Source: a virus
Lineage: Duplodnaviria > Heunggongvirae > Uroviricota > Caudoviricetes
Direction: 5' to 3' (one strand)
Length of the DNA stretch: 32,589 bases
IMG/VR virus record: IMGVR_UViG_3300037466_003234
Of the stretch, positions 14,129 to 27,306 are shown in pieces; the stretch's first letter is position 1, and each line of letters starts with the position of its first letter. A program made the translations under genes and the position numbers. The notes beneath the pieces were generated by a model, which worked only from the letters and a program-made list of their open reading frames with translations, had not been told where the DNA came from and searched no databases.

Positions 14129-14144
14129 GGTTCAATGATATATA

Positions 14145-14168: not shown

Positions 14169-15203
14169 ATGCAAAAGCAAAAAAGACCAGAAGGTTTCGA
14201 CGATAGCTTCTATAAGCTAGCAGCGGCAGTCACGCGAACCCTTGAGCGCAATAAAGACGGTACCCTCCAGCCAGAGCAGGTCGAAGAGCTTTTGGACGCT
14301 GAACGCAAGTTTAAGGAGACGATCCTTAAATACAGACAAGCTACTGAAATTTATAAAAAATTTCTTCAGAAGGTTTGCATCCAAAACAAGAACATCCTCT
14401 CTGCTCGCCCCTATTTCCGTGAAGCTGCGACCTCTTTTAGCAAAAAGATCACGCCTGCTATCAAGAACGAAGACATCGAAGCCTTAAAGACGTTTAGTAT
14501 CAATTTTCAGTTTATTAAATTCATTAAAGAAAACTGGCTAGGCCCCTTCCCAAAGCGTGCTGAGCAACTTTACGACCGCGTTAATTTGGCCAGAAATAAG
14601 CTCATCGAAAATAACATGCCTTTGGCGATCAATCGAGCAAAGCTTTTCTACCGTAAGGTACCAAAAAGCCACCTTACGCTCATGGACTTTATCCAGATCT
14701 GCTCGATGGGCCTTGCCGCAGGTATCGATAAGTGGTGCGCCCCTAAGTATTCCCCAGTATTCCGCTCAGTTTGCATCGGTCGCATGGTCGGAAACATGAT
14801 CGATAGCTATTCTGAGACCACGCTTCATTTCTACCCCTCAGACCGCCGTATTCTCTATAAGGCCAATTCCATACGTGGCCGCAGGGGCATTGACGATATC
14901 GAAGAATTAACACGCGCCGTTAACGAAAGCTTTAAGCAAGACGCCAAAGAAGGCAAGTCAATCCCTAAGGATAACATCACGGTAAGCGAGCTTTCCTCTC
15001 TTATGAATGCCGCTTCCATGATGAGCGCTGACGCTACGGTTAACGAAGAGGGGTATGGCGTTTACCATTACACCCAAGATACGAATCAAGACATCGAAGG
15101 ATCGTTAATTGAGCGCGAAGCCACCAACAAGATGTTAATTCTTGCAAAAAATCTTCCAATGCTCCACAGAAAAGTGTTGCGTTTGAAGGGTATTAAGATT
15201 TAA
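14169..15203 (+). CDS. sigma70-family RNA polymerase sigma factor lacking region 4.2
   Basis: Region 2: ARNKLIENNMPLAINRAK...LMDFIQICSMGLAAGIDKW...VFRSV; ends NLPMLHRKVLRLKGIKI*, matching region 4.1. Confidence 0.85.
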   Translation: MQKQKRPEGFDDSFYKLAAAVTRTLERNKDGTLQPEQVEELLDAERKFKETILKYRQATEIYKKFLQKVCIQNKNILSARPYFREAATSFSKKITPAIKNEDIEALKTFSINFQFIKFIKENWLGPFPKRAEQLYDRVNLARNKLIENNMPLAINRAKLFYRKVPKSHLTLMDFIQICSMGLAAGIDKWCAPKYSPVFRSVCIGRMVGNMIDSYSETTLHFYPSDRRILYKANSIRGRRGIDDIEELTRAVNESFKQDAKEGKSIPKDNITVSELSSLMNAASMMSADATVNEEGYGVYHYTQDTNQDIEGSLIEREATNKMLILAKNLPMLHRKVLRLKGIKI

Positions 15204-21851: not shown

Positions 21852-22154
21852 ATGGCACGTCCAAAGAAAGCACAACTCACCCCAATGCAAAAGCTTGCTA
21901 AGGCCATCGGATCTGATGGCGACAGCATTATTCAAGATCTAGAATCTATGGATGGTGCAGGCCTCAATAAGCGCATTGCCCAAGCTCATGAAGCAATCGA
22001 TTCCGCTAAAGAAGAGTTGAATCAAAATCCTGACTATATCCGCCACAAGGAAATGCTCAAGGATGTTAGCTCCTCTTTCCGAGACGCAAAGAAGCGCCAG
22101 AACGCTATTATCAAGGTTTGCCTTGAGCTTCGCAGAGCGCGTGGAGAAGCATAA
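21852..22154 (+). CDS. Coiled-coil hypothetical protein
   Basis: AAGGAG SD; heptad pattern. Confidence 0.75.
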   Translation: MARPKKAQLTPMQKLAKAIGSDGDSIIQDLESMDGAGLNKRIAQAHEAIDSAKEELNQNPDYIRHKEMLKDVSSSFRDAKKRQNAIIKVCLELRRARGEA

Positions 22155-24770: not shown

Positions 24771-24793
24771 TTAACAAGGGATTGGTTTATCGT

Positions 24794-26002
24794 ATGGTTG
24801 AGAAGTTCACAGATATCGAATTAGCGTTCATTACCTCACTCAAAGAAGAAGCTGCTTTGGAGTGGGCCGATATTACCGAGAGATATAATAAAAAGTTTAA
24901 GAAAGACAGAAGCCTTGAGTCCGTCAAGAAAGGCTACCAACGTAATCGCGACCGCGTTAATACGCCGGACGGATTCGTTAAGTTGATGAGCGATACCGCT
25001 CGTACTCGTAAGGCTAACGGCGCTAATGCTCGTGACCTTAAGACCGTACTTGAAGCTTGGGAAAACCGCGAAGACATCTTGGACGCCATCAAGGCAGCCT
25101 CAAAAGGCATCGCTAAGGTCACCGTAAAGCCCGTAAAATTGCCTAAGCCGAGCAAAAATCGTAAGGGTATGACCCTAGAGCTTCTCATCTCGGACGTTCA
25201 CGTTGGAAAGCTCACCAGCAGCTTTAACCATGAAGTCTTGAAGCGCCGCCTAAAGCAGGTCTCCGATACGGTTGTTAAGGAAATTCAACGCGCTCACCGT
25301 GACTATAAAGTGGAAAAGATCATCATCGCTATGCTTGGCGACATGATCGAATCGGCCACCATGCACGGCCCAGAAAGCGCCAAGGGTTGTGAATTCGGCA
25401 ACTCTCGCCAGATCGAAGAGTGCCAAAAACAGCTTTTCCACCTCCTTTTGCTCCCTATCTTTGGGATCGCAAAGCAAATTAACGCTCAAGTCGATTGTAT
25501 CGGTGTTCCAGGCAACCATGACCGCACCGAAGAGCATCGCACGATGAGCAATCCGGGCGAACACAATGTAACCTGGATCATTTACAATTCCCTAAAAGAA
25601 TTCACCTCTTTGGCAGGATTCAAGAACGTTAATTGGTTCATTCCAGTAGACCCTTATCATCTCCATGATATTTATGGGGAAGGAGTGCTTTATGAGCACT
25701 ATGATAATGTAAAGGGTAGTAACCAACGTGCAGGAATTGAACACTTGCTATCAAGAAGAATTAACCAGTTAAAGAAACCGATCGTATTTATCCGTGGCGG
25801 CCACTTCCATGAACCACAAGAAGCCGGCATTGGTAAAATCGTAATTAACGGTAACGTTCCTGGTAACGATGGATTTAGTACAACCCTAGGTTTTGATTGC
25901 GAACCCTCTCAAACCCTTAATTTCTATATCGAAAGAGAGAAGACGGACTCTATTAAGAGACAAACAAGCTTTTATAAGAGATTCCTAATCCAGCTCGATT
26001 AA
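24794..26002 (+). CDS. Calcineurin-like metallophosphoesterase with N-terminal Myb/HTH-like domain
   Basis: ISDVHVG, LGDMIE, PGNHDR, YEHYD, GGHFHE; N-terminal FTDIEL...EWADITERYNKKFKKDRSLESVKK. Confidence 0.8.
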   Translation: MVEKFTDIELAFITSLKEEAALEWADITERYNKKFKKDRSLESVKKGYQRNRDRVNTPDGFVKLMSDTARTRKANGANARDLKTVLEAWENREDILDAIKAASKGIAKVTVKPVKLPKPSKNRKGMTLELLISDVHVGKLTSSFNHEVLKRRLKQVSDTVVKEIQRAHRDYKVEKIIIAMLGDMIESATMHGPESAKGCEFGNSRQIEECQKQLFHLLLLPIFGIAKQINAQVDCIGVPGNHDRTEEHRTMSNPGEHNVTWIIYNSLKEFTSLAGFKNVNWFIPVDPYHLHDIYGEGVLYEHYDNVKGSNQRAGIEHLLSRRINQLKKPIVFIRGGHFHEPQEAGIGKIVINGNVPGNDGFSTTLGFDCEPSQTLNFYIEREKTDSIKRQTSFYKRFLIQLD

Positions 26003-26009
26003 TTGTGGA

Positions 26010-26399
26010 GTGGACGTGAGCAGGCAACAAGAGTTAGACAGACTAGATAGAGCGATCAAAGATGCAGACATGAGGCTCAAGTCGATTAAGAACAGTCTGG
26101 AAGTGATTGATAAGGAAATTAATCAATTAACTGCCTTAGAATCAGATCTTGAACAGAACTTAGCGATTTTAAAGAAAAGACGAATTACTGTATTGGCTAC
26201 CGAATATCGCAAAGCTAGGCAGGAATTGGAGCGATCCAAGGCTAAGCTAGCGATGTTAAAGGTTAATCGTAATAACGCCCAGTCTGCTCTTGAAGAGATG
26301 GAAAAGTTTCTTGCTCAGTCCAAAGAGAACTACGCAAAGATCCTTAAAGAAGCCAGTAACAATGTCCTTAAGGGCAAGTTTGGGAAAAAAGATGGCTGA
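26010..26399 (+). CDS. Coiled-coil hypothetical protein
   Basis: GGAG SD, GTG start, continuous heptads. Confidence 0.7.
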   Translation: MDVSRQQELDRLDRAIKDADMRLKSIKNSLEVIDKEINQLTALESDLEQNLAILKKRRITVLATEYRKARQELERSKAKLAMLKVNRNNAQSALEEMEKFLAQSKENYAKILKEASNNVLKGKFGKKDG

Positions 26400-26610
26400 T
26401 AAAGAAGATCTCCAAAAAAGAGTCAGGGAAGAAGAGGACTACATCCGTTGCTCTAAGTTCTCGAATTCCTTGACCAAATTCGTAGCAAAGAACTCTGAAG
26501 GCGTGGACGATTCCACGATCGCCCGCCTTCTTCTTATGGAAGAATCAGAAGTTACTAGGATCTATCAAGAGGCTGTCGTCCAGCTTCGCGAAGGATTGTC
26601 TGAAGAGTAA
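26392..26610 (+). CDS. Stand-alone sigma70 region 4.2-like HTH protein, 72 aa
   Basis: True start ATG 26392; IARLLLMEESEVTRIYQEAVVQLR aligns ungapped with RpoD VGKQFDVTRERIRQIEAKALRKLR. Confidence 0.65.
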   Translation: MADKEDLQKRVREEEDYIRCSKFSNSLTKFVAKNSEGVDDSTIARLLLMEESEVTRIYQEAVVQLREGLSEE

Positions 26611-26623
26611 CTTTATTTTCTTA

Positions 26624-26652
26624 TTGCCTTAATTTCATATCTCCTGCAATAT
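26624..26652 (+). promoter_or_regulatory. Promoter TTGCCT-N17-CAATAT, leaderless rnhA transcript
   Basis: ATG 26659 is 6 nt after the -10; the upstream block is shared with 451-483. Confidence 0.55.
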
Positions 26653-26664
26653 GGAGATATGAAA
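26633..26664 (+). promoter_or_regulatory. 12-bp hairpin sequestering the rnhA start codon
   Basis: TTTCATATCTCC-(TGCAATAT)-GGAGATATGAAA, perfect pairing. Confidence 0.8.
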
Positions 26665-27306
26665 ATTGAGGTCTTTACTGATGGGTCAGCTACGGTTCCA
26701 ACAAAGCCAGGCGGATGGGCATACGTCCTAGTAATTGACGATGAGAAGCACGCAGAGTGCTCTGGACATGCCGAAGGCGCATCTAATAACGATATGGAGC
26801 TTGAGGCTGCCATTCAAGGACTTGCCGCAGCGCTTAACTACATCGTTGACAACAATGGTCTAGGCACTTTCGCCTCTCTCACTCCCCCCAAGGTTTATCT
26901 CTGCTCGGACAGTCAACTCGTTCTCGGCTGGGCTGATGGCACTTATAGATTCAAACAGCCTCAAGAGGAAAAGAAGGCTAAATATAAAACCCTGGTCGAA
27001 CTGGTAAGACGTATGAAGGTGGAGACCAAATGGATCAAGGGTCATTCGGGCCACGAGCATAATGAGCGCTGCGATAAGCTCGCCAACGAAGCTCGTACAG
27101 GCATTACTAAGAAGAATGAAATGGACGAGGCCAAAGCTCGGGGAGAGACGTTAATTGGCACCAAGAAGTCCGGCACCATGTGCGTTTGGTATAAAGGCAA
27201 GCTTAAGGTTGTCGATCTTGAAACCAATATTGTTGAGGACTTCAAGCGCGAAGTTCACGGCAATCGCGGCAGTATGCTCGAAATCAGAGAGGAGAAATCC
27301 AGATGA
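26659..27306 (+). CDS. rnhA: Ribonuclease HI with C-terminal extension
   Basis: VFTDGS, NNDMELEA, CSDSQL, WIKGHSGHEHNERCDKLA. Confidence 0.95.
   Translation: MKIEVFTDGSATVPTKPGGWAYVLVIDDEKHAECSGHAEGASNNDMELEAAIQGLAAALNYIVDNNGLGTFASLTPPKVYLCSDSQLVLGWADGTYRFKQPQEEKKAKYKTLVELVRRMKVETKWIKGHSGHEHNERCDKLANEARTGITKKNEMDEAKARGETLIGTKKSGTMCVWYKGKLKVVDLETNIVEDFKREVHGNRGSMLEIREEKSR

Follow-up and report, generated by a model that had tools for sequence, protein, structure and literature searches.

Sigma domain 4, together with the beta-flap, is the main switch-point for the redirection of host RNA polymerase by phages. The solutions known so far employ either unrelated proteins, such as gp33, AsiA and gp39, or sigma factors that are split between regions 2 and 4. 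In the case of phage T4, gp33 fills the sigma-4 site and grips the flap tip helix in the manner of sigma-4, and it does so without binding DNA itself (PMC7892883). Sigma factors composed of two subunits include T4 gp55/gp33, SPO1 gp33/gp34, SigO-RsoA and Sig7-8 of Tn916 (bioRxiv 10.64898/2026.10.01.756105). Extended -10 promoters function independently of sigma domain 4 (PMC3950348).

In the current study, we describe a phage locus that invites comparison with these systems. The DNA that was analysed, hereafter called the window, is 32,589 nucleotides long and is part of an uncultured phage of about 170 kb. It encodes a sigma factor that ends early and, in a separate gene, a small acidic protein that we call P0001 (Table 1). 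An earlier note, made from the letters of the sequence, had proposed that P0001 might be the missing half of a split sigma factor. An identical P0001 is encoded in a 170,122-bp IMG/VR record. Of 50,697 deposited phages, Myxococcus phage Mx1 is the only one with relatives of P0001, the sigma factor and the portal protein (tblastn for P0001 and the sigma factor).

Table 1. Positions and attributes of the features considered in the window
Feature	Position	Strand	Attributes
Extended -10-like box, TGATATAT	14136..14143	+	25 nt before the sigma start codon
Phage sigma70-family factor	14169..15203	+	344 aa; regions 1.2-2-3 and two region 4.1 helices; ends in the loop before 4.2
Extended -10-like box, TGATATAA	24076..24083	+	Heads the gene string from 24098 to P0001
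Metallophosphatase-type exonuclease	24782..26002	+	Metallophos (Pfam); phrog_284, E 8e-49; first of the conserved trio exonuclease, coiled-coil, P0001
Coiled-coil ORF	26010..26399	+	129 aa; basic (+7); TGA stop overlaps the P0001 ATG
P0001 gene	26392..26610	+	72 aa; ATG start, TAA stop; net charge -6
Predicted layout of P0001			Family-specific N-terminal module, then sigma-4.2-type helix-turn-helix at residues 34-72 (alignment and AF2)
Strong RNA hairpin	26626..26672	+	Between P0001 and the RNase H gene; -26.2 kcal/mol, z -5.7

The truncated sigma factor and its promoter-like boxes

The sigma gene is found in a cluster of the order helicase, sigma, phosphoesterase. In a distant relative (G045, minus strand), the helicase gene located directly upstream of the sigma gene appears, when its translation is inspected by eye, to be interrupted by an insert resembling a homing endonuclease or intein. 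The sigma factor is far diverged, and its match to the PHROG sigma family is weak. Regardless, it is a true member of the sigma70 family: the top 50 PDB matches of its AF2 model (pLDDT 80) in Foldseek are all sigma70-family proteins with a probability of about 1.0, and its family profile matches more than 60 distinct sigma chains in region 2.

In a profile alignment, residues 251-338 of the phage sigma factor correspond to residues 108-199 of FliA and end at the 4.1 motif LPEREKLVLTL, and the structural model exhibits a disordered linker that is followed by two final helices (309-327 and 331-339). Across all aligned relatives, few parts of the protein are conserved as well as the ending, LP.LHRKVLRLKG.K. 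The Mx1 sigma factor (40% identity) stops in the same manner, and the sigma factors of a distant clade (E 1e-53) end about 10 residues later, still without region 4.2. Truncation after 4.1 was observed in all sigma relatives examined, down to about 30% identity, with lengths of about 335-365 aa. The absence of region 4.2 on which the earlier note had built its proposal is therefore upheld, in that the profile stops at FliA 199 and over 100 relatives, including Mx1 and members of distant clades, retain this end. A search of five complete genomes of the lineage for other Sigma70_r4 or r2 domains returned none beyond the P0001 homolog itself and one stop-interrupted ORF, both of which match weakly. 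Given that the end is kept in all relatives and that these five genomes carry no other Sigma70_r4 gene, we conclude that the phage sigma factor truly lacks region 4.2.

The sequence TGATATWW, which is a form of the extended -10 box TGnTATAAT, occurs 10 times in the window where 3.7 matches are expected, and none of 100 shuffled sequences reaches this count. Among these are the matches at 484, 7227 (minus strand), 12572 (minus strand), 12592, 14136, 17976 and 24076. In a near-identical complete genome (G002), 18 of the 41 matches reside in the intergenic 8.8% of the DNA (binomial P 3e-9). Some 20 sites, oriented in the sense direction, are located 8-64 nt ahead of the starts of replication and structural genes. 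The box upstream of the sigma gene is kept in 32 of 38 related loci. No information content is apparent in the sequences upstream of the boxes, which are hence without a -35 element. Canonical sigma-70 promoters and terminators were also sought between positions 22000 and 30000, and neither was present above shuffled expectation. Boxes of this kind fit a sigma factor that has no region 4.2, but the primary sigma factor of the host could equally read them.

The small acidic protein and its likeness to sigma region 4.2

The P0001 reading frame is a genuine gene. The start codon is supported by an N-terminus common to 20 close homologs (53-88% identity, 69-88 aa), and an exhaustive HMMER search uncovered relatives in 121 clusters. 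With one exception, these are short stand-alone proteins (47-103 aa). A match of 2042 aa (P0251) is a repeat adhesin and was dismissed as spurious. The Mx1 homolog (OR576727.2, 157464-157688, minus strand) is an intact ORF with a profile E of 7e-25 that is unannotated in GenBank, and it sits between the hypothetical protein WNM70294.1 and DNA polymerase III alpha. No homolog was found in the SPO1 genome with the P0001 profile. For the two most divergent members (P0260 and P0258), a scan of IMG/VR found no loci, and their short contigs show the same gene order as the other P0001 loci.

The first 33 residues of P0001 hold the most conserved motif of the family, D[FY]I..P[KR][YF].NSL, and no likeness to sigma region 4.1 is detectable there by hhalign. 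We also considered whether this module might have originated by duplication, and rejected the idea when hhalign against the C-terminus of the phage sigma factor gave no likeness. The AF2 model has a pLDDT of 74 overall and of 84-92 over residues 40-70, with helices predicted at residues 3-15, 26-33, 40-46 and 51-70. The chain stops 2 residues past the last of these helices in the sequence ...REGLSEE, in which no tail of the clamp-binding type is recognizable by eye.

Likeness to region 4.2 emerges from the family and not from the single protein, since the P0001 sequence alone matches nothing in Pfam (E<=1) or PHROG. When 121 family representatives were compared with Pfam, the most common match was Sigma70_r4 (PF04545; 20 members, best E 8.5e-6), and the other matches were to the PhyR sigma-like domain (6), GerE (5) and Sigma70_r4_2 (2). 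Against the aligned C-terminal domains of four E. coli sigma factors, hhalign assigns the P0001 profile a probability of 70% (E 4e-5) over residues 37-72, corresponding to region 4.2 only. A search of PDB sequences with the profile of close homologs revealed no sigma factor, and it took the deeper 121-member profile to reach NarL and FliA. Its best match is the NarL C-terminal domain (E 0.012), and it also finds residues 201-242 of E. coli FliA (E 0.063) and three further sigma factors (E 0.1-0.16). Pairwise comparison by hhalign equates residues 34-70 of P0001 with FliA 201-237 (E 6e-4) and residues 29-66 with NarL 162-199 (E 4e-4), and by this measure the helix-turn-helix resembles NarL/LuxR about as closely as it does sigma-4. 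In a comparison of language-model features, the named clusters nearest to P0001 consist of viral proteins of 65-79 aa, 63-100% of which have Sigma70_r4 (score 0.93-0.95).

The earlier note had described P0001 as a stand-alone sigma-4.2-type helix-turn-helix protein that aligns to RpoD without gaps and keeps the hydrophobic core, and most of this description has withstood examination. Pfam counts, profiles and language-model neighbours bear out the domain type at the level of the family. Comparison by hhalign of the family profile with E. coli RpoD returns exactly the same gap-free pairing, in which residues 43-66 correspond to RpoD 576-599, with an E of 0.083 that is not significant when taken alone. 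In the hhalign alignment, P0001 has a hydrophobic residue at each of the core positions of FliA helices 3 and 4. The note had also suggested that Sigma70_r4 be sought by profile and by fold, and here the outcome is divided: the family profiles are supportive, whereas a Foldseek search with the P0001 model places sigma factors among generic helix-turn-helix matches, none of them significant. These matches include SigF, SigR, WhiG, DosR and PhyR, all at E>1, and also SigD. Searches with the model of the PDB by Foldseek, of VIA (wide), of BFVD and of AFDB Swiss-Prot yielded non-significant rows only, and the best VIA Z of 5.0 was to unrelated helices. The likeness to sigma factors is thus one of sequence profiles, the fold evidence being weak. 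With this caveat in mind, we judge that the C-terminal half of P0001 probably represents a helix-turn-helix of the sigma-4.2/LuxR superfamily, a relationship that is remote but reproducible, and for which sigma-4 appears to be the slightly better label.

The predicted recognition helix of P0001 carries the substitutions that had been claimed for it, wherein R584, E585, R586, R588 and Q589 of RpoD are replaced by E51, S52, E53, T55 and R56. The basic residues with which region 4 of Sigma-70 reads the -35 box are absent from P0001. In the family consensus, the helix begins with [TS]EEEVE. Over positions 50-56 the net charge averages -2.4 and is below zero in 108 of 121 family members, and the entire protein is net negative in 81 of 121. 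Because positions 50-56 are acidic across the family, canonical DNA reading by this helix seems very unlikely. The four-helix domain of LuxR/GerE proteins, with its dimerisation and DNA-reading helices, also differs from P0001, which ends after a recognition helix that is acidic.

Genomic neighbourhood and co-occurrence with the sigma gene

The P0001 gene is part of a replication and recombination module with the order SbcC, RuvC-like, metallophosphatase exonuclease, coiled-coil ORF, P0001, RNase H, DEDDh exonuclease and DnaE. The P0001 homolog follows an ORF of 124-142 aa, with an overlap of stop and start, in 30 of 30 distinct loci, among them those of members that are 27-30% identical, and DnaE is found closely downstream of the P0001 homolog wherever the available flank suffices. 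For the ORF in the window, Pfam returns coiled-coil noise only and an Atlas look-up was uninformative. We consider the coiled-coil protein a likely partner of P0001, or at least one that is co-translated with it. The coiled-coil neighbours exhibit a conserved C-terminal motif, NNV[LIV]..FG.K / KVLEFK, which resembles a peptide docking tail.

Several other features of this neighbourhood were recorded. The exonuclease has a weak Myb/SANT-like match at its N-terminus (PF13873, E 0.008, residues 28-59). A gene for a sliding clamp of the DnaN type was not detected in any of five genomes (G002, G005, G007, G045 and G047), though each encodes a DnaE-type polymerase, and these phages may rely on the clamp of their host or on a very divergent clamp of their own. 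The 3' arm of the hairpin downstream of P0001 contains the ribosome-binding site (GGAG) and the ATG of the RNase H gene, and the structure may serve as an element for translational occlusion, processing or stability.

Two further claims made for this locus can be assessed at the level of genomes. One held that P0001 supplies precisely the part that the sigma factor lacks, and the ends of the two proteins do agree as sequences: the sigma factor ends at FliA 199-204 and the P0001 likeness starts at FliA 201, a junction that corresponds to the loop connecting helices 2 and 3 in domain 4. This agreement is a complementarity of sequence only. The other was the expectation that homologs of P0001 co-occur with sigma factors lacking region 4.2, and both genes are indeed present in 21 of 21 near-complete genomes, all of which belong to one lineage. 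A truncated sigma factor is encoded in 7/7 near-complete records that carry a P0001 homolog, a P0001 homolog in 12/12 that carry the sigma factor, and both in 2/2 near-complete genomes of a distant clade, where P0001 is about 30% identical. We regard this co-occurrence as weak evidence, because all carriers form one broad Mx1-like lineage with a common gene order and are phylogenetically non-independent. A fused form of the sigma factor and P0001 (a Rosetta stone) was not present among the relatives seen. The two genes are separated by 11 kb in the window and by about 11-15 kb in relatives, and are never adjacent. They accordingly do not show the adjacency or co-transcription that is found in split sigma pairs.

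A possible role for P0001 and its relation to known systems

Strict conservation of only half a helical domain would be improbable without a partner to complete it. We tentatively propose that P0001 could be this partner, acting as a surrogate for region 4.2 that has no part in DNA reading, and we caution that this assignment, drawn from sequence comparisons, is somewhat more apt to prove wrong than right. P0001 would take the structural place of region 4.2 in the holoenzyme formed with the phage sigma factor, where it would pack on the orphan 4.1 hairpin of the sigma factor, on the beta-flap tip helix, or on both. This would leave domain 4 and the RNA exit region properly occupied, with the surface towards the upstream DNA acidic and making no -35 contact. 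The choice of promoters would be left to sigma regions 2 and 3, reading the TGATATWW boxes of the extended -10 type. The basic coiled-coil protein would probably belong to the same complex, and could tie it to the replication or recombination machinery, as gp33 and gp45 do in T4. A fuller version of the proposal, which we consider unlikely, describes a sigma70 factor that is naturally split inside domain 4 and is completed on the beta-flap by an acidified 4.2 together with a coiled-coil adaptor from the replication operon, such that the replication or recombination machinery would license -35-independent transcription.

Against the proposal that P0001 stands in for region 4.2, its place in the replication module, between the exonuclease/coiled-coil pair and DnaE, equally suggests a role in replication or recombination. 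Moreover, its own helix at residues 26-33, to which helix 7 of NarL aligns, may allow P0001 to form a self-contained three-helix domain that has no need of the sigma 4.1 hairpin. The lack of a fused form, the distance of 11 kb from the sigma gene, a likeness to NarL equal to that to sigma-4, and boxes that the host primary sigma factor could read also count against it. P0001 and the coiled-coil protein could instead assist the exonuclease or the DnaE replisome as an accessory complex, in which the sigma-4-like helix-turn-helix would serve purely for protein binding and have no connection with the phage sigma factor. We hold this alternative to be rather unlikely, but it has points in its favour: the window, Mx1 and relatives at 27-30% identity all share, without variation, the order exonuclease, coiled-coil protein of about 127 aa, P0001 and DnaE, the two small proteins are of opposite charge (+7 for the coiled-coil protein and -6 for P0001), and P0001 never adjoins the sigma gene. 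However, no known family of replisome or nuclease accessory proteins was matched in Pfam or PHROG, and the orphan half of domain 4 in the sigma factor would be left unexplained. A position in the replication module is, besides, compatible with a transcription role, and T4 gene 33 likewise resides beside rnh, 59 and 32.

Two other explanations would give P0001 a role in transcription. P0001 might be directed at the host, as a competitor or decoy that binds the host beta-flap or a partner of host sigma region 4 and disables -35-dependent host promoters without contacting the phage sigma factor. Phage promoters that are independent of -35 would thereby be favoured, with an outcome similar to that of gp39 or AsiA, or to sigma mimicry of the PhyR type. 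This would agree with a sigma-4.2-like core that bears an acidic DNA-facing helix, with the PhyR sigma-like matches in 6 family members, and with phage promoters that look to be of the extended -10 class, which escapes sigma-4 displacement (PMC3950348). It nevertheless seems distinctly unlikely to us, in that Pfam and PHROG gave no sign of homology to AsiA, gp39 or gp33, and that the tight coupling to the coiled-coil gene would go unexplained. It is also conceivable, but in our estimation highly improbable, that P0001 is an ordinary small DNA-binding regulator of the neighbouring replication genes, with a helix-turn-helix of the LuxR or sigma-4 type. Small phage proteins with Sigma70_r4 or other helix-turn-helix domains are common, and it is the NarL C-terminal domain that gives the best PDB sequence match. 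Such a role is difficult to reconcile with a recognition helix whose start is acidic in most members (EEEVE), with the acidity of P0001 as a whole, and with the absence of the fourth, dimerisation helix of GerE.

If P0001 does stand in for region 4.2, then a sigma factor cut between 4.1 and 4.2 that operates with a free 4.2-like module devoid of DNA-reading charge would represent a new architecture. As a counterpart of the T4 gp33/gp45 logic, it would be homologous and sigma-derived, and it would show a DNA-reading domain evolving into a pure protein adaptor. It would also explain how -35-less promoters are used in a phage lineage that is large, widespread and almost uncultured (metagenomic relatives in the hundreds, with genomes of ~155-177 kb). 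Both genes occur in Myxococcus phage Mx1, whose genetically tractable host makes the idea open to a direct test.

Among the described systems, the Thermus phage P23-45 protein gp39 and T4 AsiA are, like P0001, small phage proteins. They remodel sigma-4 or the beta-flap and abolish -35 recognition, to the advantage of extended -10 or phage promoters. However, gp39 and AsiA act on the primary sigma factor of the host and have unrelated folds and sequences, and P0001 matches neither of them in Pfam or PHROG. The sigma-like domain of PhyR and the LuxR/GerE proteins exemplified by NarL belong to the same helix-turn-helix superfamily as P0001, and PhyR demonstrates that a sigma-like domain can be a protein-binding decoy instead of a DNA reader. 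Unlike these proteins, P0001 is stand-alone, having no receiver domain, no region-2-like part and no fourth helix of the GerE type.

The T4 system of gp55 and gp33, with gp45, likewise involves a phage sigma factor that has no -35-reading domain and promoters that consist of a -10 element only. In T4, gp33 is a separate small acidic protein that occupies the sigma-4 site on the beta-flap without binding DNA, which for P0001 is only proposed, and in both systems the gene for the small protein is located among replication genes. There are also clear differences. T4 gp33 has no structural relationship to sigma region 4 (PMC7892883). P0001, in contrast, is related to region 4.2 by sequence and matched no gp33 family in PHROG or Pfam. 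T4 gp55 has only a region-2-like domain, whereas the phage sigma factor described here keeps regions 2, 3 and 4.1. For the gp45 clamp of T4, neither a clamp gene nor a clear clamp-binding tail was found as a counterpart.

The B. subtilis pair SigO-RsoA, the Tn916 pair Sig7-Sig8 and the SPO1 pair gp33-gp34 resemble the proposed arrangement in distributing the functions of a sigma factor over two polypeptides that need to meet on core RNA polymerase. In those pairs, the split falls between regions 2 and 4, the genes lie side by side, and the region-4 part reads the -35 box (bioRxiv 10.64898/2026.10.01.756105). In contrast, the break in the phage described here falls inside domain 4, between 4.1 and 4.2, the two genes are 11 kb apart, and the part resembling 4.2 is acidic. 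Relative to the known two-part sigma factors, therefore, what would be new is the site of the split inside domain 4, a small part that would be sigma-derived and yet acidic, and a genomic link to replication genes.
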